Source: a virus (Duplodnaviria > Heunggongvirae > Uroviricota > Caudoviricetes). From it: a stretch of 32,403 bases of DNA. Under the pieces are notes generated by a model. The model saw only the letters and a list, made by a program, of their open reading frames with translations. It was not told the origin of the DNA and searched no databases. The position numbers were made by a program, and so were the translations under genes. Below, in pieces: positions 1,882-30,600 of this stretch. Where the stretch lies: IMG/VR virus record IMGVR_UViG_2675903336_000004. One strand, written 5' to 3'. The number at the start of each line of letters is the position of its first letter. Positions within the stretch are counted from its first letter, which is position 1.

Positions 1882-4901
<3,020 letters not shown>

Positions 4902-4978: not shown

Positions 4979-5031
4979 GTGTATTGCAATGTGTATTGCA
5001 AATTGGCGATCGGGATGGGTGTGTATTGCAA
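4979..5031 (+). repeat. integrase arm-type direct repeats GTGTATTGCAA x3 (attL arm, upstream of int)
   Basis: Exact 11-mers at 4979-4989, 4991-5001 and 5021-5031. Two more copies in the same orientation sit at 15645-15667, just inside attR. Confidence 0.7.
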
Positions 5032-5049
5032 ATCTCTTGAGGGCTTTTA

Positions 5050-6291
5050 ATGGCTATTGAAAACAAACTCAGTGACAAACTGTTAAAGAGTCTTGTCGGA
5101 AAACGGCAGGACAAACAAAAAACAATAGCGGATGGGCGCGGGTTGTCTGTGCGTGTAAGCATGGTTGGGGGGATCAGCTTTGTTTTTTACTATCGTCTTG
5201 GTGGCAGGGAATCCCCTCCGGTATGGCTTACACTTGGTCGCTATCCTGACATGTCTCTTGCAACGGCCAGGCGCATGCGTGATCAGTGCCGTGAATGGCT
5301 GGCTGAAAATCTGGACCCCCGCAGGCAAATAAAACTTGCTGCCGAAAAAACTATGCAACCAGTGACCGTAAGGGATGCGCTGTTTTACTGGTACGACAAT
5401 CACGCCACAACAGCCAGAAAAGAGCATGAATATTTAATAAAACGATTTGAAAAGCATATCTTCCCCTATATCGGTGATATGGCTATAGAACAGTGCAAAT
5501 TACACACATGGCTTACCGTCTTTGACAGGATCAAAAAAAATGCGCCTGTTATGTCTGGTGCAATTTTTCTTGATATCAAACAGGCGTTGCGTTTTTGTCG
5601 CGTCAGGCAATACATCGCGTGCGATCCCTTTGGAGATATTAACGTAAGTTATGTCGGGCGCTCATCCGGTATAAGGGATCGCGTTCTTAATATCAATGAA
5701 ACCGCTGATGTATGGTCTTATGCTTACGGTAATAATTTGCTAACTCTGTCATCAATATATAACCGAAGAATAATGGTTATCTGCCTGGTGTTTGGTTGCC
5801 GACAGCAGGAGGCGAGGCTATCCACCTGGGACGAATGGGATTTAAAAAACTGGGTATGGACAGTCCCAAAAGAGCACAGCAAAAACAAGGAGGCTATAGT
5901 AAGGCCTGTTCCTGACGGAATAAAACAATGGATCGTTAATCTTTACGCAGAAACAAAAAATCGCGGTTATGTTGTCGGTTGTGCTTTGCAAAGGGCGACA
6001 ATAACAGGGGCTGCAAACAGAATATGCAGGCGTCTTGGTCATGATACTAATGGCTTGTGGTGCATACATGATTTCAGGCGCACATTTTCCACTACGCTTA
6101 ATGATATGGGGGCGGATCCTTATATTGTCGAACTTCTTTTAGGTCATAAAGTGAAAGGGGTTGCTGGTGTTTACAATAAAAGCAGGCATATAAAGAAAAA
6201 ACTTGAGGTGCTTAATATGTGGGTTAATTACCTTAATACGATAGCAGGATTTAACAACAACGTTATCGAGCTTAATAAAGAGGTGGTGTGA
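5050..6291 (+). CDS. int: tyrosine-type site-specific integrase (P4-like family)
   Basis: 413-aa ORF with the C-terminal catalytic signature HDFRRTFSTTLNDMGADPYIVELLLGH...VYNKS (His-x-x-Arg and Tyr). Located immediately inside attL, preceded by the arm repeats. Confidence 0.9.
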   Translation: MAIENKLSDKLLKSLVGKRQDKQKTIADGRGLSVRVSMVGGISFVFYYRLGGRESPPVWLTLGRYPDMSLATARRMRDQCREWLAENLDPRRQIKLAAEKTMQPVTVRDALFYWYDNHATTARKEHEYLIKRFEKHIFPYIGDMAIEQCKLHTWLTVFDRIKKNAPVMSGAIFLDIKQALRFCRVRQYIACDPFGDINVSYVGRSSGIRDRVLNINETADVWSYAYGNNLLTLSSIYNRRIMVICLVFGCRQQEARLSTWDEWDLKNWVWTVPKEHSKNKEAIVRPVPDGIKQWIVNLYAETKNRGYVVGCALQRATITGAANRICRRLGHDTNGLWCIHDFRRTFSTTLNDMGADPYIVELLLGHKVKGVAGVYNKSRHIKKKLEVLNMWVNYLNTIAGFNNNVIELNKEVV

Positions 6292-6292
6292 T

Positions 6293-6550
6293 ATGACAAT
6301 TTATTCTCTTGTTGATGAAAACGATTTGCGCACAATGAAGGACATTGATCGGTTCATTCGTGAAAAAGAGTGCATAGCACTTACCACGCTGGCAAACTCA
6401 ACACGCTGGAAAATGGAGCAGGCAGGTAAATTCCCGCGACGTATCAAGATCGGTGAACGTGCTGCAGGGTATCGACTTTCAGAGGTTCAGGCATGGATCC
6501 GTGGTGAGTGGCATCCTGGATGGAAACCTGGAAAAACAAAACAGCAATAA
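6293..6550 (+). CDS. alpA: AlpA-family transcriptional regulator / putative excisionase
   Basis: 85-aa ORF directly downstream of int. The segment IREKECIALTTLANSTRWKMEQAGKFPRRIKIGERAAGYRLSEVQAWI fits the AlpA/Xis-type HTH pattern. Confidence 0.8.
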   Translation: MTIYSLVDENDLRTMKDIDRFIREKECIALTTLANSTRWKMEQAGKFPRRIKIGERAAGYRLSEVQAWIRGEWHPGWKPGKTKQQ

Positions 6551-6563
6551 CCAGTAAATAATG

Positions 6564-6586
6564 CCCCTCATCACGAGGGGTTTTTT
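6564..6586 (+). terminator. rho-independent terminator after alpA
   Basis: Hairpin CCCCTC-atcac-GAGGGG followed by TTTTTT. Confidence 0.75.
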
Positions 6587-6606
6587 GTCTATAAGGTAAA
6601 AACGCG

Positions 6607-7185
6607 ATGAATAAAAATATTGCCGTGACGGGCAAGGGGTACGCTCGTCCAGTGAAAAAATTCTGCGATATTCGTGATCTCGTCGTTCTGCGCTTTGATA
6701 GTGTGAACGTTCGTGTGGTGTATCTGAACGGCGATCCGTGGTTTGTTGCAAAAGATGTTTGTGCTGCGCTGGAACTAACCAATTCGCGTACGGCGTTGCA
6801 GATGCTTGATGATGATGAAAAGGGAGTAAATTTAACTTACACCCCAGGAGGAAATCAGAATATGAGAATTATCTCTGAGTCAGGTTTCTACAAACTAATA
6901 GCCCGCAGCCGCAAAGCAACGACGCCTGGCACATTTGCTCATCGTTTCAGTAACTGGGTATTCAGAAATGTGATACCAGGTATCAGAAAAACGGGGACTT
7001 ATGGTATCCCGTGGGGTGCATTACAGGATTTTTCCCGCCGTAAAGAGCAATATCAAATAAGTGCCAGCGAGAAGGGGAGGGAGCTACAGGCATGTAAGCG
7101 CAAAAAGCGTGAGCTGGAGGAAGAAGAAAAAACGCTGATACGTGAATATCAGCCTGAGTTTTACTTTGGTAACCGCATTCAGTGA
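6607..7185 (+). CDS. Bro-N domain protein (antirepressor-like)
   Basis: 192-aa ORF. The segment DPWFVAKDVCAALELTNSRTALQMLDDDEKG...ISESGFYKLIARSRKATTPGTFAHRFSNWVFRNVIPGIRKTGTY matches the Bro-N/KilA-N type domain, with a charged coiled-coil-like C-terminus. Confidence 0.65.
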   Translation: MNKNIAVTGKGYARPVKKFCDIRDLVVLRFDSVNVRVVYLNGDPWFVAKDVCAALELTNSRTALQMLDDDEKGVNLTYTPGGNQNMRIISESGFYKLIARSRKATTPGTFAHRFSNWVFRNVIPGIRKTGTYGIPWGALQDFSRRKEQYQISASEKGRELQACKRKKRELEEEEKTLIREYQPEFYFGNRIQ

Positions 7186-7215
7186 CAAAACAAAGGCGAC
7201 CGCAAAAGGGTCGCC
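7186..7215 (-). terminator. putative rho-independent terminator of the leftward operon (possibly bidirectional)
   Basis: Hairpin GGCGACC-gcaaaag-GGTCGCC at 7195-7215, preceded on the + strand by aaaacaaa, which reads as a T-run after the stem on the - strand. Confidence 0.5.
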
Positions 7216-7281
7216 AGTGGGAACAAGGGAAAACAAAAGCATCACCAACAATGCCACATTTGCGGCTGGTGGGCAATGTGA

Positions 7282-7461
7282 TCAGTCAGATTTGGTTCGT
7301 TCCAAGGTTTGCAACGAGAGCTTTTTCCTGTGCTCTTTAAGGAATTTCTCAAGAGCAAACGAACAAGGTGCGAATCTTTCTGATTCATGTTCATGCGCTA
7401 TATTTTTGCGTCGTCTCTTACGAGTTGGTGATGGTGTTTTGGTTGATTCTGTGTCGCTCAT
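7282..7461 (-). CDS. small basic hypothetical protein (59 aa; below the ORF-track threshold)
   Basis: Manual translation of the reverse strand gives MSDTESTKTPSPTRKRRRKNIAHEHESERFAPCSFALEKFLKEHRKKLSLQTLERTKSD. It has an AGGA-containing RBS about 7 nt upstream and lies between orf101 and the terminator on the same strand. Confidence 0.35.
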   Translation of the reverse strand: MSDTESTKTPSPTRKRRRKNIAHEHESERFAPCSFALEKFLKEHRKKLSLQTLERTKSD

Positions 7462-7518
7462 GGTGCTGTCCTGTAAAGCAATGCGCCTGCGTTCCTCAAA
7501 CTATGGCGCTGATATTGG

Positions 7519-7824
7519 CTATTCATGCTCTTTGACCTTGCGTCGCTGGAGTTCTTCACGCGCGACGGTGACGAGTTGCCCGATCTCCTCGGCTGCTTTG
7601 ATGCCGATTTGTTCGACCTTAGCCAGGGCATCCAGTGACGACACAAGGGGATTTTCTCCGCTGCCTTCTGCTTGGCGGCGGGCTATTTCTCCGCGCATGG
7701 CGGTTACGATAAATCCGGCATTGCTTTCACCGTCCAGCTTAACGGATTCCATCCCTTGCATAACATCTAGTGGGACTCTGACAGTTGTCAGTTGTGATTT
7801 TGCGTTTTTGTTAGCCGTTGCCAT
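7519..7824 (-). CDS. putative transcriptional regulator (101 aa), divergent from the island early operon
   Basis: Complete ORF with an AGGAG RBS 8 nt upstream. It is transcribed away from the operator-containing intergenic region, and its position mirrors satellite/phage repressor genes. Fold assignment is tentative. Confidence 0.45.
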   Translation of the reverse strand: MATANKNAKSQLTTVRVPLDVMQGMESVKLDGESNAGFIVTAMRGEIARRQAEGSGENPLVSSLDALAKVEQIGIKAAEEIGQLVTVAREELQRRKVKEHE

Positions 7825-7885
7825 TTCTGAAACTCCTAATCATCGGTGTGTTTCAGTATACACAAAAAAAGAAATACAAAAAGCC

Positions 7886-7923
7886 TTGACGTGTGTTTCA
7901 TGCGCTCATAACATGAAACACAC
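7886..7923 (+). promoter_or_regulatory. rightward promoter (TTGACG, 17 bp, TAACAT) overlapped by a 12-bp perfect inverted-repeat operator
   Basis: GTGTGTTTCATG (7891-7902), 9-bp spacer, CATGAAACACAC (7912-7923). A third half-site GTGTGTTTCA is at 7846-7855. The -35 TTGACG is at 7886-7891 and the -10 TAACAT at 7909-7914. Confidence 0.6.
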
Positions 7924-8014
7924 CGAAAGGATTGTTGAAATACAAAGAGCAACGCCCCGCAGTGCTGGGAACACATACGGGGCGTCTAACCAACAACGTA
8001 AACTAGGAGCCGTT

Positions 8015-8212
8015 ATGGTTGCTGTAAATCATATACCACACCTTGTACACACACAAACGGCCTTTGTGTGGCGTTTTCTGGCACTGAGTGCCGGAGAATC
8101 TCAAATCATCCACGTAACCGCCTGGACGGAACGCGAAGCGCGTAGCCGTTGCCCGTCCGGTTGTGTTGCTGTATTCGCTGCAAAAATCCGCCAGGGAGTG
8201 AGTCATGCTTAA
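8015..8212 (+). CDS. small protein (65 aa), possibly Icd-like cell-division-inhibitor family
   Basis: ATG at 8015 with an AGGAG RBS 5 nt upstream; it shares frame and stop with the tail of the spurious long ORF 7142..8212. First gene after the operator-controlled promoter. Family assignment is from memory of a VWRFLAL-type motif and is tentative. Confidence 0.4.
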   Translation: MVAVNHIPHLVHTQTAFVWRFLALSAGESQIIHVTAWTEREARSRCPSGCVAVFAAKIRQGVSHA

Positions 8213-8390
8213 AACCTTCCGTGTATTTGCCCGAGCTGTTAACCCAATAGGCCACACAATTGGTATCGCTCAGAATGTGAAGGCTGTTAATGTTCAGACG
8301 GCTATTGCTGCGGTGAGAAGCGAATCATCAGAATATGGCTTATCACAAGTCATTATTTCAGCAGTGTATGAATTAAAAGAGGTGCATTAA
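8205..8390 (+). CDS. hypothetical protein (61 aa)
   Basis: Complete ORF whose start overlaps the stop of the preceding gene, indicating a translationally coupled operon. Confidence 0.4.
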   Translation: MLKTFRVFARAVNPIGHTIGIAQNVKAVNVQTAIAAVRSESSEYGLSQVIISAVYELKEVH

Positions 8391-8581
8391 TGCAGGAAAT
8401 TACATTACACGAAGCCGCTGAACGTGCGCACCAGACAGAAATTATTTGCCGCCTTCTTGAGGTATACCCGAACAAAATTACAGATGCTGATATATCCGCA
8501 CTGGCGAGCCTACTGGCGCGTCTTTCGGGAAGTGTCGCTAGTTTTTTGATTGAGGAAGAAAGTAAGCTGGTGGGGGATTAA
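8390..8581 (+). CDS. hypothetical protein (63 aa)
   Basis: Complete ORF with a TAATG stop/start overlap with the previous ORF. Confidence 0.4.
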   Translation: MQEITLHEAAERAHQTEIICRLLEVYPNKITDADISALASLLARLSGSVASFLIEEESKLVGD

Positions 8582-8803
8582 ATGAATACAGAACGGGAAG
8601 TCTTTTTTAAATTGTTAGCATGTGCAGAAAGTTCATTAACTTTAAATAATTCAGCAAAAGCAATATTAAATATGTGGCTTGATTGCATAAATGACAATGA
8701 AGATGCAAATATTGCTTATGGCCTGTTGTCACTTATTGATGAATCAGCAGAAAAACTCAATGACGCAATAAATAGTGCCCTGCTATCAAATAAGTCGAGT
8801 TAA
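8582..8803 (+). CDS. hypothetical protein (73 aa, AT-rich)
   Basis: Complete ORF abutting the previous stop. Codon composition is AT-rich. Confidence 0.4.
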   Translation: MNTEREVFFKLLACAESSLTLNNSAKAILNMWLDCINDNEDANIAYGLLSLIDESAEKLNDAINSALLSNKSS

Positions 8804-8820
8804 GTCGAGGAATAAATAAT

Positions 8821-9120
8821 ATGGAAATGAAAAATTCTGGCTTTATTGCCAGCGGCCCCGCTCGACCTGAATTTATGAACGGCGATATTTACCGCGATAA
8901 ATACGGCGGCACGGTAACGATTAAAGGCGTGGCAGAACGGCGCATCACTTACCGCCGTGAGGGGTATAGCTATGACTGCGTGATGCCTGTTTATCAGTTC
9001 CGGCGTGATTTTTCCCTGGTATATGCCGCACCCCGCAGTAAGCCCATCAGCAGGGAAAAAGCGTGGGGAAATATCCAGAAAATGAAAACCATGATTAACG
9101 GATTCAGAGGTAAAAAATGA
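8821..9120 (+). CDS. hypothetical protein (99 aa)
   Basis: Complete ORF with an ATGA overlap with the pri-rep start. Confidence 0.45.
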   Translation: MEMKNSGFIASGPARPEFMNGDIYRDKYGGTVTIKGVAERRITYRREGYSYDCVMPVYQFRRDFSLVYAAPRSKPISREKAWGNIQKMKTMINGFRGKK

Positions 9121-10871
9121 AACTGGCACCGAACGTAAAACAGCAGTCACGCGGCATAAAACACAAAGGAACAGAAGTCATTATTTTTGCGGGTAGTGAT
9201 GCCTGGGCACACGCGAAACAATGGCAGGAACATGATGCGCGTATGGCCGGAGATAATGAGCCTCCTGTGTGGCTTGGGGAGCAGCAGCTATCCGAACTGG
9301 ATAATCTGCAAATTGTGCCGGAAGGCCGAAAATCAGCACGCATATACAGGGCCGGATATCTTGCGCCTGTAATGATAAAGACGATTGGTCAGAAGCTGGC
9401 GGCAGCAGGCGTACAGGATGCAAATTTTTATCCTGAGGGTATGCACGGCCAGGAGGTGCAGAACTGGCGCGAATATCTGGCCCGTGAACGCCAGAATCTT
9501 TCTGATGGTCTGGTCATTGAGCTTCCGGTAAAGCAAAAGGCGCAACTTTCGCAGATGGCGGACAGTGAGCGCGCGCAGTTGCTTGCCGATCGCTTTGATG
9601 GCGTTTGCGTACATCCTGAAAGTGAAATCGTTCACGTATGGCGCGGCGGGGTATGGTGTCCGGTCAGCACAATGGAACTTAGCCGCGAAATGGTGGCGAT
9701 CTATTCAGAGCACAGGGCCACTTTCAGCAAGCGCGTAATCAATAACGCCGTGGAAGCGTTAAAAGTTATTGCCGAACCAATGGGCGAGCCGTCTGGCGAT
9801 TTGCTGCCGTTCGCCAATGGTGCGCTTGACCTGAAAACGGGGGAATTTTCCCCGCACACGCCGGAGAACTGGATCACCACGCACAACGGCATTGAGTACA
9901 CGCCACCAGCACCAGGGGAGAACATCCGCGATAACGCGCCAAACTTTCATAAATGGCTTGAGCACGCAGCCGGAAAAGACCCGCGCAAGATGATGCGTAT
10001 ATGTGCCGCGCTGTACATGATTATGGCGAACCGGTACGACTGGCAGATGTTTATTGAGGCCACCGGAGACGGCGGGAGCGGTAAAAGTACATTCACACAC
10101 ATAGCCAGCCTTCTGGCAGGGAAACAGAACACGGTAAGCGCTGAAATGACATCGCTTGATGATGCTGGTGGACGTGCGCAGGTTGTCGGGAGTCGTCTTA
10201 TCGTCCTGGCTGACCAGCCGAAATATACAGGCGAAGGAACGGGCATCAAGAAAATCACAGGCGGCGACCCCGTGGAAATTAACCCGAAATATGAAAAGCG
10301 TTTCACGGCGGTAATCAGGGCGGTGGTGCTGGCGACCAACAACAACCCGATGATATTCACCGAACGGGCCGGAGGTGTGGCACGTCGTCGCGTGATTTTC
10401 CGTTTCGACAATATCGTCAGTGAGGCCGAAAAAGACAGGGAGCTACCGGAAAAGATTGCGGCTGAAATCCCCGTTATTATCCGCCGATTGCTGGCGAACT
10501 TTACCGACCCTGAGAAGGCACGGGCTTTACTACTGGAACAGCGTGACGGTGATGAAGCACTGGCAATAAAGCAACAGACGGATCCGGTTATTGAGTTTTG
10601 CCAGTTCCTGAATTTTCTGGAGGAAGCGCGCGGCCTGATGATGGGTGGCGGTGGTGATTCAGTGAAGTACACGACCAGGAACAGCCTTTACCGCGTCTAT
10701 CTGGCGTTTATGGCATACGCGGGCAGGAGCAAACCGCTAAACGTGGCTGAGTTCAGCAAGGCCATGAAGCCAGCGGCGAAAGTTTACGGGCATGAATATA
10801 TTACGCGAAAAGTTAAGGGAGTAACGCAGACCAACGCAATTACAACAGACGATTGCGACGCGTTTTTATAA
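9117..10871 (+). CDS. primase/helicase replication initiator (pri-rep; P4-alpha/D5-like NTPase)
   Basis: 584-aa ORF with Walker A GDGGSGKST and a Walker B-like RLIVLADQP. Size, domain order and position (upstream of an iteron array) are as in PICI pri-rep genes. Confidence 0.85.
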   Translation: MKLAPNVKQQSRGIKHKGTEVIIFAGSDAWAHAKQWQEHDARMAGDNEPPVWLGEQQLSELDNLQIVPEGRKSARIYRAGYLAPVMIKTIGQKLAAAGVQDANFYPEGMHGQEVQNWREYLARERQNLSDGLVIELPVKQKAQLSQMADSERAQLLADRFDGVCVHPESEIVHVWRGGVWCPVSTMELSREMVAIYSEHRATFSKRVINNAVEALKVIAEPMGEPSGDLLPFANGALDLKTGEFSPHTPENWITTHNGIEYTPPAPGENIRDNAPNFHKWLEHAAGKDPRKMMRICAALYMIMANRYDWQMFIEATGDGGSGKSTFTHIASLLAGKQNTVSAEMTSLDDAGGRAQVVGSRLIVLADQPKYTGEGTGIKKITGGDPVEINPKYEKRFTAVIRAVVLATNNNPMIFTERAGGVARRRVIFRFDNIVSEAEKDRELPEKIAAEIPVIIRRLLANFTDPEKARALLLEQRDGDEALAIKQQTDPVIEFCQFLNFLEEARGLMMGGGGDSVKYTTRNSLYRVYLAFMAYAGRSKPLNVAEFSKAMKPAAKVYGHEYITRKVKGVTQTNAITTDDCDAFL

Positions 10872-10886
10872 TTTTTTGTAAAAGCC

Positions 10887-11105
10887 ATCTACCCCATCTA
10901 CCTGAACAAAATAAACGCATATTATTCAACATGATAAGTGGGTATAGGGCTAGGTAGAAGGCTAATAAAAGCTCTCTACCTCTTCTACCTGATTTTATCA
11001 GTTTCAGGTAGCAGGGTAGACGGCAGGTAGAGGAGTCAAAAAGCTATCTACCCGCTGAAAGCCGCGCCATTACTGACATGATGAGCATTCGGGTAGATGG
11101 GTAGA
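10887..11105. repeat. iteron array / putative replication origin (GGTAGA/TCTACC motifs, about 12 copies in both orientations)
   Basis: ATCTACC at 10887 and 10896; GGTAGA at 10953; TCTACC at 10975 and 10984; GGTAG(A) at 11007, 11015 and 11026; ATCTACC at 11046; GGTAGA at 11092 and 11100. Lies immediately 3' of pri-rep. Confidence 0.65.
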
Positions 11106-11889: not shown

Positions 11890-12100
11890 ATTCTGCAAAC
11901 AAAAAGATGCCGGAAAAAAATAGATTTTCCGGCATGCTACATAAATCCCGACCAAAGGAAGTAAATACATTAACACGAATTATCAGCACTGAAGTTGTTA
12001 CGGCATATTTTATACAACATTGCACTTGGTTGCATGTATTCGCATAGCAGACATCGGTAATAGAATATATTCACAATTATTTGTAATGAATGTAAAGAGG

Positions 12101-13509: not shown

Positions 13510-13893
13510 ATGCAGAATCATTACAATGACCTTAAGCCAATTGCCGAAATGATGTATCCGGATCCAGCAGTAGAGGAATTAAAGGCTATTGCTGACAAAA
13601 TGCGTTTAAGTGAACGCCTTGTTGATATGAATCAGGTGATGGAACTTACTACCCTTAGCCGTCGCACATTGCTAAACCTTGAGGCTCGCGGAGAGTTCCC
13701 CGAACGCGTACAGGTTACGGAAGGGCGTAAGGCCTGGTATTTAAGTGAAGTGATCGACTGGATAAACAATATTCCTCGATCTTCTGAATATTGCCGCGTA
13801 CCTGTCCCAAAAAAGCCAGATGCGGCGCTATGCCTCAAGATTGAGCGTGTACGTCGCAATGCACGGGATGGTCGCTATAAGTTGATTGGTTGA
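13510..13893 (+). CDS. AlpA-like HTH DNA-binding protein (second AlpA paralog), directly upstream of the island cos
   Basis: 127-aa ORF with RBS AGGGGG. The central segment MELTTLSRRTLLNLEARGEFPERVQVTEGRKAWYLSEVIDWI fits the AlpA/MerR-like HTH pattern and is flanked by N- and C-terminal extensions. Confidence 0.6.
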   Translation: MQNHYNDLKPIAEMMYPDPAVEELKAIADKMRLSERLVDMNQVMELTTLSRRTLLNLEARGEFPERVQVTEGRKAWYLSEVIDWINNIPRSSEYCRVPVPKKPDAALCLKIERVRRNARDGRYKLIG

Positions 13894-16316: not shown

Positions 16317-16584
16317 NNNNNNNNNNNNNNNNNNNNNNNNNNNNNNNNNNNNNNNNNNNNNNNNNNNNNNNNNNNNNNNNNNNNNNNNNNNNNNNNNNNN
16401 NNNNNNNNNNNNNNNNNNNNNNNNNNNNNNNNNNNNNNNNNNNNNNNNNNNNNNNNNNNNNNNNNNNNNNNNNNNNNNNNNNNNNNNNNNNNNNNNNNNN
16501 NNNNNNNNNNNNNNNNNNNNNNNNNNNNNNNNNNNNNNNNNNNNNNNNNNNNNNNNNNNNNNNNNNNNNNNNNNNNNNNNNNNN

Positions 16585-20071: not shown

Positions 20072-20697
20072 ATGGCCATAAAAGGTCTTGAGCAGGCCGT
20101 TGAAAACCTCAGCCGTATCAGCAAAACGGCGGTGCCCGGTGCCGCCGCAATGGCCATTAACCGCGTTGCTTCATCCGCGATATCGCAGTCTGCGTCACAG
20201 GTTGCCCGTGAGACAAAGGTACGCCGGAAACTGGTAAAGGAAAGGGNNNNNNNNNNNNNNNNNNNNNNNNNNNNNNNNNNNNNNNNNNNNNNNNNNNNNN
20301 NNNNNNNNNNNNNNNNNNNNNNNNNNNNNNNNNNNNNNNNNNNNNNNNNNNNNNNNNNNNNNNNNNNNNNNNNNNNNNNNNNNNNNNNNNNNNNNNNNNN
20401 NNNNNNNNNNNNNNNNNNNNNNNNNNNNNNNNNNNNNNNNNNNNNNNNNNNNNNNNNNNNNNNNNNNNNNNNNNNNNNNNNNNNNNNNNNNNNNNNNNNN
20501 NNNNNNNNNNNNNNNNNNNNNNNNNNNNNNNNNNNNCCGGGAAAAACCGTTACCCCATTGATGTGGTGAAAATCCCGATGGCGGTGCCGCTGACCACGGC
20601 GTTTAAACAGAATATTGAACGGATACGGCGTGAACGTCTTCCGAAAGAGCTGGGCTATGCGCTGCAGCATCAACTGAGAATGGTAATAAAGCGATGA
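20072..20697 (+). CDS. Z: tail completion protein Z (contains masked gap 20247-20536)
   Basis: N-terminus MAIKGLEQAVENLSRISKTAVPGAAAMAINRVASS... before the gap. After the gap the frame ending at TGA 20695-20697 encodes ...[49 protein letters not shown]. The gap length breaks the apparent frame. Confidence 0.85.
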
Positions 20698-22691: not shown

Positions 22692-25263
22692 ACCGGTAGG
22701 CGATCTGGTCGTTGATTTGAGTCTGGATGCGGCCAGATTTGACGAGCAGATGGCCAGAGTCAGGCGTCATTTTTCCGGTACGGAAAGTGATGCGAAAAAA
22801 ACAGCGGCAGTCGTTGAACAGTCGCTGAGCCGACAGGCGCTGGCTGCACAGAAAGCGGGGATTTCCGTCGGGCAGTATAAAGCCGCCATGCGTATGCTGC
22901 CTGCACAGTTCACCGACGTGGCCACGCAGCTTGCAGGGGGGCAGAATCCCTGGCTGATCCTGCTGCAACAGGGTGGTCAGGTTAAGGACTCCTTCGGCGG
23001 GATGATCCCCATGTTCAGGGGGCTTGCCGGCGCGATCACCCTGCCGATGGTGGGGGCCACCTCGCTGGCGGTGGCGACCGGTGCGCTGGCGTATGCCTGG
23101 TATCAGGGCAACTCAACCCTGTCCGATTTCAACAAAACGCTGGTCCTTTCCGGTAATCAGGCGGGACTGACGGCAGATCGTATGCTGGTCCTGTCCAGAG
23201 CCGGGCAGGCGGCAGGGCTGACGTTTAACCAGACCAGCGAGTCACTCAGCGCACTGGTTAAGGCGGGGGTAAGCGGTGAGGCTCAGATTGCGTCCATCAG
23301 CCAGAGTGTGGCGCGTTTCTCCTATGCATCCGGCGTGGAGGTGGACAAGGTCGCTGAAGCCTTCGGGAAGCTGACCACAGACCCGACGTCGGGGCTGACG
23401 GCGATGGCACGCCAGTTCCATAACGTGACGGCGGAGCAGATTGCGTATGTTGCTCAGTTGCAGCGTTCCGGCGATGAAGCCGGGGCATTGCAGGCGGCGA
23501 ACGAGGCCGCAACGAAAGGGTTTGATGACCAGACCCGCCGCCTGAAAGAGAACATGGGCACGCTGGAGACCTGGGCAGACAGGACTGCACGTGCATTCAA
23601 ATCCATGTGGGATGCGGTGCTGGATATTGGTCGTCCTGATACCGCGCAGGAGATGCTGATTAAGGCAGAGGCTGCGTTTAAGAAAGCAGACGACATCTGG
23701 AATCTGCGCAAGGATGATTATTTCGTTAACGATGAAGCACGGGCGCGTTACTGGGATGATCGTGAAAAAAAACGCCTGGAGCGGGATGCAGCCCAAAAGA
23801 GGGTAGATCAACAGCGTCAACAGGACAAAAATGCGCAGCAGCAGAGCGATACCGAAGCGTCACGGCTGAAATATACCGAAGAGGCGCAGAAGGCTTACGA
23901 ACGGCTGCAGACGCCGCTGGAGAAATATACCGCCCGTCAGGAAGAACTGAACAAGGCACTGAAAGACGGAAAAATCCTGCAGGCAGATTACAACACGCTG
24001 ATGGCGGCGGCGAAAAAGGATTATGAAGCGACGCTGAAAAAGCCGAAACAGTCCGGCGTGAAGGTGTATGCGGGCGATCGTCAGGAAGACAGTGCTCATG
24101 CGGCCCTGCTGACGCTTCAGGCAGAACTCCGGACGCTGGAGAAGCATGCCGGAGCGAATGAGAAAATCAGCCAGCAGCGCCGGGATTTGTGGAAGGCAGA
24201 AAGTCAGTTCGCGGTACTGGAGGAGGCGGCACAACGTCGCCAGCTGTCCGCACAGGAGAAATCCCTGCTGGCGCATAAAGACGAGACGCTGGAGTACAAA
24301 CGCCAGCTGGCTGCACTTGGTGACAAGGTTACGTATCAGGAGCACCTGAATGCGCTGGCGCAGCAGGCGGATAAATTCGCACAGCAGCAACGGGCAAAAC
24401 GGGCAGCCATTGATGCGAAAAACCGGGGGCTGACTGACCGGCAGGCAGCGCGGGAAGCCACGGAACAGCGCCTGAAGGAACAGTATGGCGATAATCCTCT
24501 GGCGCTGAATAACGTCATGTCAGAGCAGAAAAAGACCTGGGCGGCTGAAGACCAGCTTCGCGGGAGCTGGATGGCAGGCCTGAAGTCCGGCTGGAGTGAG
24601 TGGGAAGAGAGCGCCACGGACAGTATGTCACAGGTTAAAAGTGCAGCCACGCAGACCTTTGATGGTATTGCACAGAATATGGCGGCGATGCTGACCGGCA
24701 GTGAACAGAACTGGCGCAGCTTCACCCGCTCCGTGCTGTCCATGATGACAGAAATTCTGCTTAAGCAGGCAATGGTGGGGATTGTCGGGAGTATCGGCAG
24801 CGCCATTGGCGGGGCTGTTGGTGGCGGCGCATCCGCGTCAGGTGGTACAGCNNNNNNNNNNNNNNNNNNNNNNNNNNNNNNNNNNNNNNNNNNNNNNNNN
24901 NNNNNNNNNNNNNNNNNNNNNNNNNNNNNNNNNNNNNNNNNNNNNNNNNNNNNNNNNNNNNNNNNNNNNNNNNNNNNNNNNNNNNNNNNNNNNNNNNNNN
25001 NNNNNNNNNNNNNNNNNNNNNNNNNNNNNNNNNNNNNNNNNNNNNNNNNNNNNNNNNNNNNNNNNNNNNNNNNNNNNNNNNNNNNNNNNNNNNNNNNNNN
25101 NNNNNNNNNNNNNNNNNNNNNNNTGATTCAGAACGACGGTACGAATGGTCTGCCAGGTCCACAGATGATGAAGGCCGTGTATGACATGGCCCGCAAGGGT
25201 GCCCGTGATGAAATTCAGACACAGATGCGTGATGGTGGCCTGTTCTCCGGAGGTGGACGATGA
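22684..25263 (+). CDS. H: tail tape measure protein H (contains masked gap 24852-25123)
   Basis: MAEPVGDLVVDLSLDAARFDEQMARVRRHFSGTESDAKKTAAVVEQS... is a long Ala/Gln-rich coiled-coil protein matching lambda gpH. Confidence 0.93.
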   Translation: MAEPVGDLVVDLSLDAARFDEQMARVRRHFSGTESDAKKTAAVVEQSLSRQALAAQKAGISVGQYKAAMRMLPAQFTDVATQLAGGQNPWLILLQQGGQVKDSFGGMIPMFRGLAGAITLPMVGATSLAVATGALAYAWYQGNSTLSDFNKTLVLSGNQAGLTADRMLVLSRAGQAAGLTFNQTSESLSALVKAGVSGEAQIASISQSVARFSYASGVEVDKVAEAFGKLTTDPTSGLTAMARQFHNVTAEQIAYVAQLQRSGDEAGALQAANEAATKGFDDQTRRLKENMGTLETWADRTARAFKSMWDAVLDIGRPDTAQEMLIKAEAAFKKADDIWNLRKDDYFVNDEARARYWDDREKKRLERDAAQKRVDQQRQQDKNAQQQSDTEASRLKYTEEAQKAYERLQTPLEKYTARQEELNKALKDGKILQADYNTLMAAAKKDYEATLKKPKQSGVKVYAGDRQEDSAHAALLTLQAELRTLEKHAGANEKISQQRRDLWKAESQFAVLEEAAQRRQLSAQEKSLLAHKDETLEYKRQLAALGDKVTYQEHLNALAQQADKFAQQQRAKRAAIDAKNRGLTDRQAAREATEQRLKEQYGDNPLALNNVMSEQKKTWAAEDQLRGSWMAGLKSGWSEWEESATDSMSQVKSAATQTFDGIAQNMAAMLTGSEQNWRSFTRSVLSMMTEILLKQAMVGIVGSIGSAIGGAVGGGASASGGTXXXXXXXXXXXXXXXXXXXXXXXXXXXXXXXXXXXXXXXXXXXXXXXXXXXXXXXXXXXXXXXXXXXXXXXXXXXXXXXXXXXXXXXXXXXXIQNDGTNGLPGPQMMKAVYDMARKGARDEIQTQMRDGGLFSGGGR

Positions 25264-27665: not shown

Positions 27666-30600
27666 ATGGGTAAAGGCAGCAGTAAGGGGCATACCCCGCG
27701 CGAAGCGAAGGACAACCTGAAGTCCACGCAGCTGCTGAGTGTGATCGATGCCATCAGCGAAGGGCCGGTTGAAGGTCCGGTGGATGGATTAAAAAGCGTG
27801 CTGCTGAACAGTACGCCGGTGCTGGACAGTGAGGGGAATACCAACATCTCCGGCGTCACGGTGGTGTTCCGGGCAGGTGAGCAGGAGCAGTCACCGCCGG
27901 AGGGATTTGAATCCTCCGGCTCCGAGACGGTGCTGGGTACGGAAGTGAAATATGACACGCCGATCACCCGGACCATCACGTCGGCAAACATTGACCGACT
28001 GCGTTTTACCTTCGGTGTACAGGCACTGGTGGAAACCACCTCAAAGGGAGACAGGAATCCGTCTGAAGTTCGCCTGCTGGTTCAGATACAGCGTAACGGT
28101 GGCTGGGTGACGGAAAAAGACATCACCATTAAGGGCAAAACCACCTCGCAGTATCTGGCCTCGGTGGTGGTGGATAACCTGCCGCCGCGCCCGTTTAATA
28201 TCCGGATGCGCAGAATGACGCCGGACAGCACCACAGACCAGCTGCAGAACAAAACGCTCTGGTCGTCATACACCGAAATCATCGATGTGAAACAGTGCTA
28301 CCCGAACACGGCACTGGTCGGCGTACAGGTGGATTCGGAGCAGTTCGGCAGCCAGCAGGTGAGCCGTAATTATCATCTTCGCGGGCGCATTCTGCAGGTG
28401 CCGTCGAACTATAATCCGCAGACGCGGCAATACAGCGGTATCTGGGACGGAACGTTAAAACCGGCATACAGCAACAACATGGCCTGGTGTCTGTGGGATA
28501 TGCTGACCCATCCGCGCTATGGCATGGGGAAACGTCTTGGTGCGGCAGATGTGGATAAATGGGCGCTGTATGTCATCGGCCAGTACTGTGACCAGTCGGT
28601 GCCGGACGGCTTTGGCAGCACGGAGCCGCGCATCACCTGTAATGCCTGGCTGACCACACAGCGCAAGGCGTGGGATGTGCTCAGTGATTTCTGCTCGGCG
28701 ATGCGCTGTATGCCGGTATGGAACGGGCAGACGCTGACGTTCGTGCAGGACCGACAGTCGGATAAGGTGTGGGCCTATAACCGCAGTAATGTGGTGATGC
28801 CGGATGATGGCGCGCCGTTCCGCTACAGTTTCAGCGCCCTGAAAGACCGCCATAATGCCGTTGAGGTGAACTGGATTGACCCGGATAACGGCTGGGAGAC
28901 GGCGACAGAGCTTGTGGAGGATACGCAGGCCATTGTCCGTTACGGTCGTAACGTCACGAAGATGGATGCCTTTGGCTGTACCAGCCGGGGGCAGGCACAC
29001 CGCGCCGGGCTGTGGCTGATTAAAACGGAACTGCTGGAGACGCAGACCGTGGATTTCAGCGTGGGTGCTGAAGGGCTTCGTCATGTACCGGGCGATGTCA
29101 TTGAAATCTGCGATGATGACTATGCCGGTATCCGCACCGGCGGGCGCGTGCTGGCGGTGAACAGCCAGACCCGGACGCTGACGCTCGACCGTGAAATCAC
29201 GCTGCCATCCTCCGGCACCACGCTGATAAGCCTGGTTGACGGGCAGGGGAATCCGGTCAGCGTGGAGGTCCAGTCCGTCACCGACGGCGTGAAGGTAAAA
29301 GTGAGCCGTGTTCCTGACGGTGTTGCTGAATACAGCGTGTGGGGGCTGAAGCTGCCGACGCTGCACCAGCGATTGTTCCGCTGCGTGAGTATCCGTGAGA
29401 ACGACGACGGCACGTATGCCATCACCGCCGTGCAGCATGTGCCGGAAAAAGAAGCCATCGTGGATAACGGGGCGCACTTTGACGGCGACCAGAGCGGCAC
29501 GGTGAATGGTGTCACGCCGCCAGCGGTGCAGCACCTGACTGCCGAAGTCACCGCAGACAGCGGGGAATATCAGGTGCTGGCGCGCTGGGACACGCCGAAG
29601 GTGGTGAAGGGCGTGAGCTTCCTGCTCCGTCTGACCGTAACAGCGGATGACGGCAGTGAGCGGCTGGTCAGCACGGCCCGGACGACGGAAACCACTTACC
29701 GCTTCACACAACTGGCGCTGGGGAACTACANNNNNNNNNNNNNNNNNNNNNNNNNNNNNNNNNNNNNNNNNNNNNNNNNNNNNNNNNNNNNNNNNNNNNN
29801 NNNNNNNNNNNNNNNNNNNNNNNNNNNNNNNNNNNNNNNNNNNNNNNNNNNNNNNNNNNNNNNNNNNNNNNNNNNNNNNNNNNNNNNNNNNNNNNNNNNN
29901 NNNNNNNNNNNNNNNNNNNNNNNNNNNNNNNNNNNNNNNNNNNNNNNNNNNNNNNNNNNNNNNNNNNNNNNNNNNNNNNNNNNATCAAACCGGGCCATGA
30001 TTATTACTTTTATATCCGCAGTGTGAACACCGTTGGCAAATCGGCATTCGTGGAGGCTGTTGGTCAGCCGAGTGATGATGCATCCGGTTATCTGGATTTT
30101 TTCAAAGGCGAGATAGGGAAAACCCATCTGGCTCAGGAGCTGTGGACGCAGATTGATAACGGTCAGCTTGCGCCTGACCTGGCTGAAATCAGGACGTCCA
30201 TTACGGATGTCAGCAATGAAATCACGCAGACCGTCAATAAGAAACTGGAAGACCAGAGTGCGGCAATTCAGCAGATACAGAAGGTTCAGGTTGATACAAA
30301 TAATAACCTGAACAGCATGTGGGCTGTGAAGCTGCAGCAGATGCAGGACGGACGCCTTTATATCGCGGGTATTGGTGCCGGTATTGAGAACACCCCTGAC
30401 GGCATGCAGAGTCAGGTGCTGCTGGCGGCGGACAGGATTGCGATGGTTAATCCTGCGAATGGCAACACAAAACCGATGTTTGTTGGTCAGGGCGATCAGA
30501 TATTCATGAACGACGTGTTCCTGAAACGCCTGACGGCCCCCACCATTACCAGCGGTGGAAATCCATCGGCATTTTCCCTGACTCCGGACGGAAAGCTGAC

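Follow-up and report, generated by a model that had tools for sequence, protein, structure and literature searches.

The 32.4-kb window analyzed here is a stretch of Caudoviricetes DNA (IMG/VR virus record IMGVR_UViG_2675903336_000004), and all positions below are coordinates of this window. It contains a short divergent region between two genes, namely, orf101, which is read leftward and encodes a protein of the YlcI/YnfO family, and an icd-like gene, which heads a rightward operon with small open reading frames (ORFs), a DUF4222 gene, and a primase gene. The genes form part of an island that is inserted in the portal gene of a lambdoid prophage, i.e., of a helper-embedded phage-inducible chromosomal island (HE-PICI). 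The divergent region carries an array of short, regularly spaced sites over its promoters and, in the leader of the icd-like gene, a conserved segment with the signature of a structured antisense RNA. It is considered probable that this is an immunity-type control region of the island, in which orf101 would act as the repressor on the site array and an antisense RNA would act alongside it.

An array of phased sites between orf101 and the icd-like gene

A perfect inverted repeat had originally been predicted in front of the icd-like gene, and it is present, with the arms GTGTGTTTCATG (7891-7902) and CATGAAACACAC (7912-7923) flanking the 9-nt spacer cgctcataa. The arms are complementary at 12 of 12 positions. 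A scan of the whole window for perfect inverted repeats with arms of at least 12 nt and a spacer of up to 20 nt revealed no second one, and none was found in 100 dinucleotide-preserving shuffles. The third half-site that had been noted 45 bp upstream also exists and is longer than claimed: GTGTGTTTCA (7846-7855) repeats 7891-7900 exactly and in direct orientation, with 45 bp from start to start, and TCGGTGTGTTTCA (7843-7855) is complementary to 7914-7926 at 13 of 13 positions.

The element that recurs is a 9-mer, TGTGTTTCA, of which three exact copies, all within 76 bp of each other, were found in the 32.4 kb; no further exact copy exists in the window, the helper genes that it contains included. 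Two weaker copies, AGAAATACA (7 of 9 positions) and TGAAATACA (8 of 9), complete an array of four to five sites that are centered at 7851, 7874, 7896, 7918, and 7940, i.e., 22 to 23 bp apart, and that bracket the rightward promoter and a candidate leftward promoter (Table 1). In the remainder of the window, outside 7843-7944, matches to the 12-mer with up to two mismatches and to the 9-mer with up to one mismatch occur at chance level only, which gives no sign that the regulon extends to other parts of the window. The existence of the sites, their regular phasing, and their departure from chance are thus established. The proposed operator, consisting of a 12-bp palindrome and a stray half-site, has to be replaced by this phased 9-bp array; the palindrome is not the functional unit, since its outer ATG/CAT varies and sites 3 and 4 are direct repeats in some classes of the loci compared below.

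The segment from 7886 to 7923 reads TTGACG TGTGTTTCATG cgctcataa CATGAAACACAC, with G7891 being common to the -35 hexamer and the left arm. The left arm fills the spacer of the rightward promoter P_R, whereas the right arm covers the last three bases of the -10 hexamer and the predicted start site. The repeat had been placed between the two hexamers, which holds for the left arm but not for the right one, as the -10 hexamer lies inside the repeat. The hexamers themselves, TTGACG and TAACAT, are as predicted, but with 9 of 12 matching positions in the promoter scan they are only a fair match and not a near-consensus one. Since the number of promoter-like matches in the region does not exceed the expectation (3 versus 4.5), the hexamers say little on their own; P_R is credible because its position is conserved across loci, and the same comparison supports the view that it heads the icd-like/small-ORF/primase operon, together with repeats that resemble protein-binding sites. 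For orf101, a candidate -10 hexamer with a weak -35 is seen on the minus strand between sites 1 and 2; a T-A-x-x-x-T hexamer occupies the same minus-strand column in most loci and reads TATAAT in six Xenorhabdus and Photorhabdus loci. No LexA-type box was seen by eye in the region.

A predicted ribbon-helix-helix protein

Residues 9 to 50 of orf101 match the NCBIfam family NF041551 with 63.3 bits (cut-off, 30), which makes the protein a member of the YlcI/YnfO family; this is also the RefSeq name of an identical protein, and the corresponding PHROGs family is listed as being of unknown function. The AlphaFold model, with a pLDDT (predicted local distance difference test) score of 80, consists of an extended N terminus, helices 19-28 and 35-54, and a single long helix from 59 to 100, and the family alignment follows the same order, with a strand, helix A, a G-E-S turn, and then helix B. 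A strand-helix-helix unit of about 45 residues corresponds to the ribbon-helix-helix (RHH) fold of Arc, MetJ, and CopG, and the predicted fold is accepted on these structural grounds.

At the sequence level, membership in a described RHH family was not found. Pfam returned nothing above its cut-off for orf101, a sub-threshold match to PF07704 being present in 18 of 25 family members (best E value, 0.0011). Sequence and profile searches of PDB gave nothing significant, nor did Foldseek against PDB (Arc at E = 6), and hhalign gave probabilities of 8.9% for Arc and 1.1% for Mnt, which are not significant either. The hhalign register is nevertheless the expected one, with TTVRVP opposite FNLRWP and FNFRMP. 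Residues 12, 14, and 16 of orf101 are aligned in this register with the DNA-contacting residues Q9, N11, and R13 of Arc.

A word-indexed search retrieved 216 homologues, and the family is confined to Enterobacterales; an exhaustive profile search of 1.84 billion proteins yielded just 73 representatives at 50% identity. Many members are only 52 to 65 aa long and match residues 1-54 only, which argues that the N-terminal part is an independent domain. No S24 peptidase domain was found in orf101. Downstream of orf101, after a gap of 57 nt, lies an unannotated basic ORF of 59 aa (7282-7461, minus strand) that may be co-transcribed with it; this ORF is conserved in the loci L019 and L023 (..HESERFAPCAFALEQFLKEHRKKLSLQTLERTKSD) and absent from many others.

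Co-variation of sites and DNA-reading strand across loci

The region was compared in 23 loci, i.e., the window and 22 further ones, the genera listed being E. coli, Xenorhabdus, Photorhabdus, Serratia, Enterobacter, Erwinia, Klebsiella, Edwardsiella, Yersinia, and Phytobacter. Twelve loci were taken from contigs of one genome per species, with L013 dropped because only residues 51-98 were covered, and 14 more were added via chosen protein variants; L015, L017, and L019 duplicate the operator region of other loci and received no separate score. All loci share the same synteny, with int, alpA, and often Bro/Ant genes followed by the leftward orf101 homologue on one side, and the icd-like gene, small ORFs, DUF4222, and a replication protein gene rightward on the other.

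When aligned on the -35 hexamer, every locus shows one scaffold: site 1, a minus-strand -10-like hexamer, site 2, AAAAG, the -35, site 3, N8, a TAAnnT-type -10, and site 4. The -35 occupies a fixed position and is TTGAC in 17 of the 23 loci and TTGCA, TTGAA, or TTAAC in the others, and the -10 follows 17 nt downstream (plus or minus one base). Median center-to-center spacings are 23, 23, 22, and 22 bp, and a fifth class-specific site, matching at 7 or more of 9 positions, is present in 11 loci. Sites resemble each other more within a locus (22.7 of 27) than between classes (17.9 +/- 2.7). In the QMTT and KN classes, named after the strand motifs given below, sites 3 and 4 are direct repeats at the same positions and with the same spacing. 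When E. coli is compared with Xenorhabdus, Photorhabdus, or Serratia, the spacers have drifted, including the outer ATG/CAT of the palindrome, but the sites are conserved.

Across the 23 loci, the site sequence co-varies with residues 11 to 17 of orf101, the predicted DNA-reading strand. The motif QLTTVRV of the window goes with TGTGTTTCA, KQISIRI (L014) with TGTGATTCA, QMTT[ILV]R[VI] with TGTAT(A/C)TCA (in L023, QMTTLRV with TGTATATCA), QSLTARI with TGTAAG(C/A)CA, QMISTRV with TGTAGGCAG, and QQ[LI]NARF with TGG(T/G)ATTCA, whereas Q.KN[IV]R. is found with sites of the TAAATACAC type in another orientation pattern. Several pairs of loci discriminate between orf101 and other candidate determinants. 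In the window and L023, the Icd-like proteins are 98% and the orf101 C termini 94% identical, but strands and sites differ. L026 and L027 have identical Icd-like N termini (first 60 aa compared) and identical AlpA proteins, and L023 and L025 have AlpA proteins identical at 61 of 62 residues; in both pairs the sites differ. Conversely, site 3 is identical (TGTAAGCCA) in the QSLTARI loci of four genera, whose Icd-like proteins are less than 50% identical and whose replication proteins differ (AAA_25 or Toprim/DUF927). On the basis of these comparisons, four candidate determinants of the site sequence were rejected, namely, the C terminus of orf101, the Icd-like protein, AlpA, and the replication protein.

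The differences between the window and L023 are confined to one block: sliding identity is 92-96% at 7600-7750, falls to 40-84% at 7750-7975, and returns to 88-100% at 7975-8175. Such a bounded divergent block, spanning the first codons of orf101 and the operator/promoter region, reads as the signature of an exchangeable specificity cassette. As a separate observation, a Xenorhabdus vietnamensis contig (Xvie_38; L008 and L009) carries two orf101/operator modules about 5 kb apart in opposite orientation, one of which has point changes in sites 1 and 3.

A candidate antisense RNA over the start of the icd-like gene

The leader of the icd-like gene contains a conserved hairpin (7951-7985), for which the minus strand gives the more stable fold in 21 of 22 loci. 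In the window, an 86-nt minus-strand RNA (8021-7936) would fold to -33.6 kcal/mol with a z score of -3.8, versus a z score of -1.1 for the sense leader. The minus-strand consensus comprises 19 base pairs, 11 of them with compensatory changes; pairing is present in 95.6% of cells, a value that none of 500 shuffles reached, and collapses when the partners are slid. G.U cells number 54 and A.C cells 4, and reading the plus strand lowers pairing to 84%. A structure of the plus-strand leader was rejected, because stability, the G.U/A.C signature, and the z scores all favor the minus strand.

From this covariation and strand signature, which are features of the alignment itself, we infer the existence and the ends of a cis-antisense RNA, and on balance we lean toward its being real. 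The loop of its 5' hairpin would carry CUCCU, complementary to the Shine-Dalgarno (SD) sequence of the icd-like gene, and the RNA would probably provide a second regulatory layer that is absent from the original prediction. A candidate promoter lies in the first icd-like codons. In 20 of 23 loci, a T-A-x-x-x-T hexamer is located at a distance of 47 to 51 nt from the hairpin (48 to 49 nt in 18 of them); this distance is kept in three loci in which the start codon has moved (L010, L020, and L022), and the three key bases of the hexamer are retained whether the codon at this position encodes H, S, R, or T.

Rfam gave no match at the gathering threshold in the whole window and none at E values of up to 10 in 7780-8260, apart from chance matches of microRNA and long noncoding RNA families to the palindrome. 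Membership in the C4, CI, or IsrK families was rejected, as no Rfam covariance model matched on either strand and the structural features point to the strand opposite to that of the target. Unidirectional PICIs without orf101 (L028 and L029) carry the candidate antisense segment, with 97% identity, ahead of their Icd-like genes, and the segment is therefore a separate module.

The island and its neighborhood

RefSeq annotation and family scans agree on an island of about 10.8 kb; over 5000-11000, the window matches E. coli EC28 and several other genomes with 100% identity. A lambda-B-type portal gene (..LQSAIVKA / MYAATIESELD..) is interrupted by the island at about 4872 and about 15740, and the two are co-oriented; the island ends were taken from the portal reading frame alone, and a search for the attachment (att) core by exact repeat gave just an 11-bp match of doubtful meaning. 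In the near-identical icd-integrated CFT073 prophage (L030, 32568-34160), which is the known helper of EcCICFT073 and serves as an empty-site control, the portal gene is intact. The D5_N primase gene is followed, in this order, by genes for SSB, the major capsid protein, a decoration protein, a second AlpA-like helix-turn-helix (HTH) protein, and terS. With the split, co-oriented portal gene and genes for Int, AlpA, Bro-N, D5_N primase, SSB, capsid, decoration protein, and terS, the island is an HE-PICI inside a lambdoid portal gene. Because of its co-orientation with this gene, late transcription of the helper would enter the island against orf101. Of 5,426 complete E. coli genomes, 349 contain at least 80% of the 497-nt control module, which is distributed over about ten enterobacterial genera.

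Table 1. Positions of the control elements and neighboring genes in the window
Feature	Position	Strand	Remarks
Tyrosine integrase gene	5050-6291		
AlpA-like HTH gene	6293-6550		
BRO-N protein gene	6607-7185		
orf101	7519-7824	-	101 aa, YlcI/YnfO family; predicted RHH domain at about 1-54 and C-terminal helix 59-100; proposed repressor
Candidate exchangeable specificity cassette	7750-7975	.	First ~25 orf101 codons and whole operator/promoter region, to site 5
Site 1	7847-7855	+	TGTGTTTCA, 9/9; extended match TCGGTGTGTTTCA at 7843-7855; just downstream of candidate leftward -10
Candidate leftward (orf101) -10	7855-7860	-	TATACT; between sites 1 and 2; weak -35
Site 2	7870-7878	-	AGAAATACA on plus, TGTATTTCT on minus; 7/9
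Rightward promoter P_R	7886-7914	+	-35 TTGACG 7886-7891, 17-nt spacer, -10 TAACAT 7909-7914; start predicted at ~7921
Inverted repeat	7891-7923	.	12-bp arms, 9-nt spacer; sites 3 and 4 plus non-conserved flanking bases
Site 3	7892-7900	+	TGTGTTTCA, 9/9; in promoter spacer, immediately after -35
Site 4	7914-7922	-	TGAAACACA on plus, 9/9 reversed; overlaps -10 end and predicted start site
Site 5	7936-7944	-	TGAAATACA on plus, 8/9 reversed; in transcribed leader, 22 bp past site 4
Candidate cis-antisense RNA	7936-8021	-	~80-86 nt; 5' hairpin 8020-7988, long hairpin 7986-7951, U-rich tail 7950-7936
icd-like gene	8015-8212	+	First gene of rightward operon; SD AGGAG 8005-8009; NF033153, 63.7 bits (cut-off, 25)
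Candidate antisense promoter	8028-8056	-	-35 TTGTGT 8056-8051, 17 nt, -10 TATGAT 8033-8028; in first icd-like codons
D5_N primase gene	9117-10871		Tightly packed after icd-like gene, three small ORFs, and DUF4222

Further features of the island and window were noted. The BRO-N protein has strong matches to PHROG anti-repressor families (phrog_2593, E value of 4e-85), and in many but not all loci a Bro, AntA, or ORF6N gene separates alpA from the orf101 homologue; the BRO-N protein could function as an antirepressor, with orf101 or the helper's own repressor as its target. A strong terminator-like hairpin with a T run (GCCCCTCATCACGAGGGGT TTTTTG, 6563-6581, plus strand) is located right after the alpA-like gene and before the BRO-N gene, which is on the same strand. 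The second AlpA/excisionase-like HTH gene (13510-13893; phrog_2790, E value of 2e-48) is part of the late zone, in which the decoration gene precedes it and terS follows. The sole other long perfect inverted repeat of the window has 11-bp arms, ATGCCGGAAAA-N7-TTTTCCGGCAT (11907-11935), and is found just past ssb and ahead of the capsid gene; it could be a terminator or mark the boundary between the replication and late zones. Masked runs of N occur at 3140-3426, 16317-16584, 20247-20536, 24852-25123, and 29731-29983, none of them near the control region.

Alternative explanations

The palindrome could be an RNA hairpin instead of a protein-binding site, namely, an intrinsic terminator on the minus strand that stops leftward transcripts, such as antisense read-through, before orf101. 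The minus strand from 7930 to 7860 does fold to -21.9 kcal/mol (z score of -4.2) and is followed by CUUUUUGUAUUUCUUUUUUU, and the arms can be extended to 26 nt with a complementarity of 81%. However, the rightward mRNA would start inside the right arm, which prevents it from folding into the hairpin; sites 3 and 4 are direct repeats without hairpin potential in the QMTT and KN classes and yet keep position and spacing; and a terminator explains neither the conservation of the arm sequence itself across genera nor its repetition at sites 1, 2, and 5. A conserved GC-rich hairpin with a U tract was not found, the hairpin being lost in the direct-repeat classes. This explanation is very unlikely, but the palindrome may have a secondary terminator role in this particular island. 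A similarly low probability is assigned to the sites being read by a protein other than orf101, i.e., AlpA, the Icd-like protein, a replication initiator for which they would be origin iterons, or CI or Cro of the helper. AlpA is the known regulator of Gram-negative PICIs (PMC6092414), some Icd-like families are called "transcriptional repressor" in PHROGs, PICI origins consist of iterons, and, given how near the 5' end of orf101 is, linkage alone could make the sites seem to co-vary with it. These candidates are difficult to reconcile with loci whose sites differ despite Icd-like proteins of 98-100% identity, or despite AlpA proteins that are identical or nearly so, with the occurrence of one site class next to unrelated replication proteins (D5_N, DUF927, AAA_25, or Toprim), with the location of the sites on promoter elements and not downstream of pri-rep, and with the confinement of exact copies to the array in a window that includes helper genes. 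A helper-encoded reader may, in formal terms, still be involved.

Finally, orf101 might be an antitoxin-like autoregulator that is paired with the small basic ORF downstream of it, with rightward control being incidental. The weak PF07704 match mentioned above would fit this, as would the conservation of an ORF of 57 to 67 aa after orf101, with the 57-nt gap, in the window, L019, and L023. Yet this ORF is absent or unrelated in many loci with a full array (L014, L016, L018, and L020), it has neither a toxin family match nor a RefSeq annotation (no family-library scan was aimed at it), and the strongest sites, 3 and 4, which are perfect in the window, are on the rightward promoter and not on that of orf101, which makes this explanation highly improbable. 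Among the proteins considered, orf101 is by far the best candidate for the repressor, as the original prediction had it, in view of its RHH-like fold and the co-variation of strand and sites in the 23 loci.

Several points weigh against control by orf101 and an antisense RNA as proposed here. The recognition end of orf101 is only 20 to 120 bp from the sites, and linkage thus contributes to the co-variation; it leaves unexplained, however, the four- to fivefold in-phase repetition of the 9-mers, the conservation of 9-mers across genera, and the edge of the cassette right after the DNA-reading strand. The spacing of 22 to 23 bp is unusual when compared with RHH operators, on which dimers are usually 8 to 11 bp apart. 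The leftward promoter, with its poor -35 and a score below the threshold of the promoter scan, is the least secure element. The antisense promoter was also below this threshold; it matches at 8 of 12 positions only, and its apparent conservation is partly confounded by coding constraint. Binding, repression, autoregulation, oligomerization through the C-terminal helix, and every step of helper sensing are deductions from sequence comparison. Finally, related PICIs work without orf101 and depend on AlpA, and orf101 may therefore be an accessory lock and not a master switch.

The latter point concerns the most far-reaching part of the original prediction, which was largely right about repressor and operator but wrong about the anatomy of the latter. 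The region cannot be regarded as a proven master switch of the island: the same icd-like leader occurs without orf101 in many related PICIs, and in related Gram-negative PICIs the activator AlpA was found to be the essential inducer (PMC6092414).

Comparison with known control systems

In kind, the proposed control would be that of an ordinary RHH repressor-operator system, with the closest architecture in the immI region of phage P22 and the closest target in that of P1, in which C4 acts on icd. P22 immI encodes the RHH repressors Mnt and Arc, with operators over P_ant and P_mnt, and the antisense RNA sar. Shared features are a small RHH repressor that is divergent from the operon it would control, operators that overlap back-to-back promoters, an RHH domain that is followed, as in Mnt, by a predicted C-terminal helical oligomerization domain, and, as with sar, a short candidate cis-antisense RNA over the ribosome-binding site (RBS) of a downstream operon gene. 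In contrast, there is no detectable sequence homology to either repressor (see the hhalign values above), the P22 operators are single, with a length of about 21 bp and half-sites about 11 bp apart, as opposed to the array found here, and the operon in question is the replication module of a satellite, whereas in P22 it is the antirepressor gene. A classification of orf101 as a P22 Mnt-type immunity repressor was rejected given the low hhalign probability and the other operator geometry; the resemblance is architectural only. With immI of P1 and P7 (C4 RNA, icd, ant) and the CI RNA of P4, the region shares an Icd-type gene at the head of the operon whose RBS would be masked by a small RNA; C4 and CI are, however, on the strand of their target and are processed from its leader, whereas the structure signature is here on the opposite strand.

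Among satellites, Stl of Staphylococcus aureus pathogenicity islands (SaPIs) and the Rpr repressors of Gram-positive PICIs are likewise divergent from the excision/replication operon and without an SOS self-cleavage domain, and for this reason they need, and orf101 would need, an external anti-repression signal; for Stl, derepression by a helper protein is documented. They are larger HTH proteins that are co-directional with int, whereas orf101 is convergent with int, alpA, and bro, so that the orientation of the repressor relative to int differs from that in Gram-positive PICIs (PMC6092414). The gene order int, alpA, icd-like, DUF4222, primase is that of the EcCICFT073-type Gram-negative PICIs (PMC6092414), to which the island adds a divergent repressor-operator cassette that is missing from the unidirectional PICIs of the O145/O157 type (L028 and L029). 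In agreement with the HE-PICIs described by Tommasini, Mageeney, and Williams in 2023 (PMC10111431), the island is integrated in, and co-oriented with, the cognate of a lambda late gene (portal), is organized in four zones (integration, Bro, replication, and late), and has its own capsid, decoration, and terS genes. That paper, in contrast, describes the Bro zone by its Bro-network proteins and C4/isrK-type RNAs and makes no mention of this RHH repressor, its operators, or a cis-antisense RNA. There is no mention of a repressor in the preprint on capsid-forming PICIs (cf-PICIs), and a 2026 survey merely names a "YlcI/YnfO, prophage-associated protein" in PICIs. No published description of a YlcI/YnfO repressor, of RHH proteins in phage satellites, or of an Icd-like antisense RNA was found in a literature search that was thin on subscription journals.

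Proposed mechanism

In the mechanism that we propose, orf101 would repress the icd-like/primase operon, and probably its own gene, in a sequence-specific manner. As a small RHH protein with a long C-terminal helix, it would bind the array of 9-bp sites; occupation of sites 3 and 4 would block RNA polymerase and keep the icd-like/small-ORF/DUF4222/primase operon off, the exclusion of polymerase at P_R being suggested by the location of these sites in the promoter spacer and at the start site. Sites 1 and 2 bracket the candidate leftward promoter and would mediate autoregulation, through weaker sites as judged from site 2. The C-terminal helix probably bridges neighboring dimers that are two helical turns (22 to 23 bp) apart, in the way that the C-terminal domain of Mnt links neighboring dimers. 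Leaky transcripts would probably meet a further, post-transcriptional lock in a constitutive antisense RNA (about 80 nt) that is complementary to the start codon and SD sequence of the icd-like gene. Derepression must be external, as orf101 has no self-cleavage (peptidase) domain, and would most likely result from late read-through of the helper into the co-oriented island, which would oppose transcription of orf101 and displace the repressor; an antirepressor or AlpA-driven expression may act alongside or instead of it.

Implications

Gram-positive PICIs are silenced by Stl or Rpr proteins, which are inactivated by a helper protein, whereas the founding paper on Gram-negative PICIs describes only the activator AlpA; Fillol-Salom et al. 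(2018) considered AlpA a helper-induced activator and the presence of a global repressor "unclear." The control region analyzed here supplies a widespread and testable candidate for this missing repressor and gives the uncharacterized YlcI/YnfO family a proposed function, with putative operators that are mapped base by base. The candidate antisense RNA over the icd-like start would be a separate module that is also found in PICIs without the repressor.

A broader proposal, which is put forward tentatively and is rather unlikely to be correct in all its parts, is that YlcI/YnfO RHH proteins are the missing master repressors of many Gram-negative PICIs, including helper-embedded and capsid-forming ones, that their swappable strand/operator cassettes define orthogonal immunity groups, that repressor and antisense layers are combined, and that the switch is flipped by helper late read-through against orf101 and not by a helper protein. 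If this were the case, orthogonal immunity groups would allow several satellites to share one cell, and read-through sensing would be without precedent among satellites. The narrower hypothesis of orf101 as repressor can be put to a direct test with the natural specificity swaps found among the window, L014, and L023, and the short, apparently orthogonal repressor-operator pairs could serve as genetic parts.

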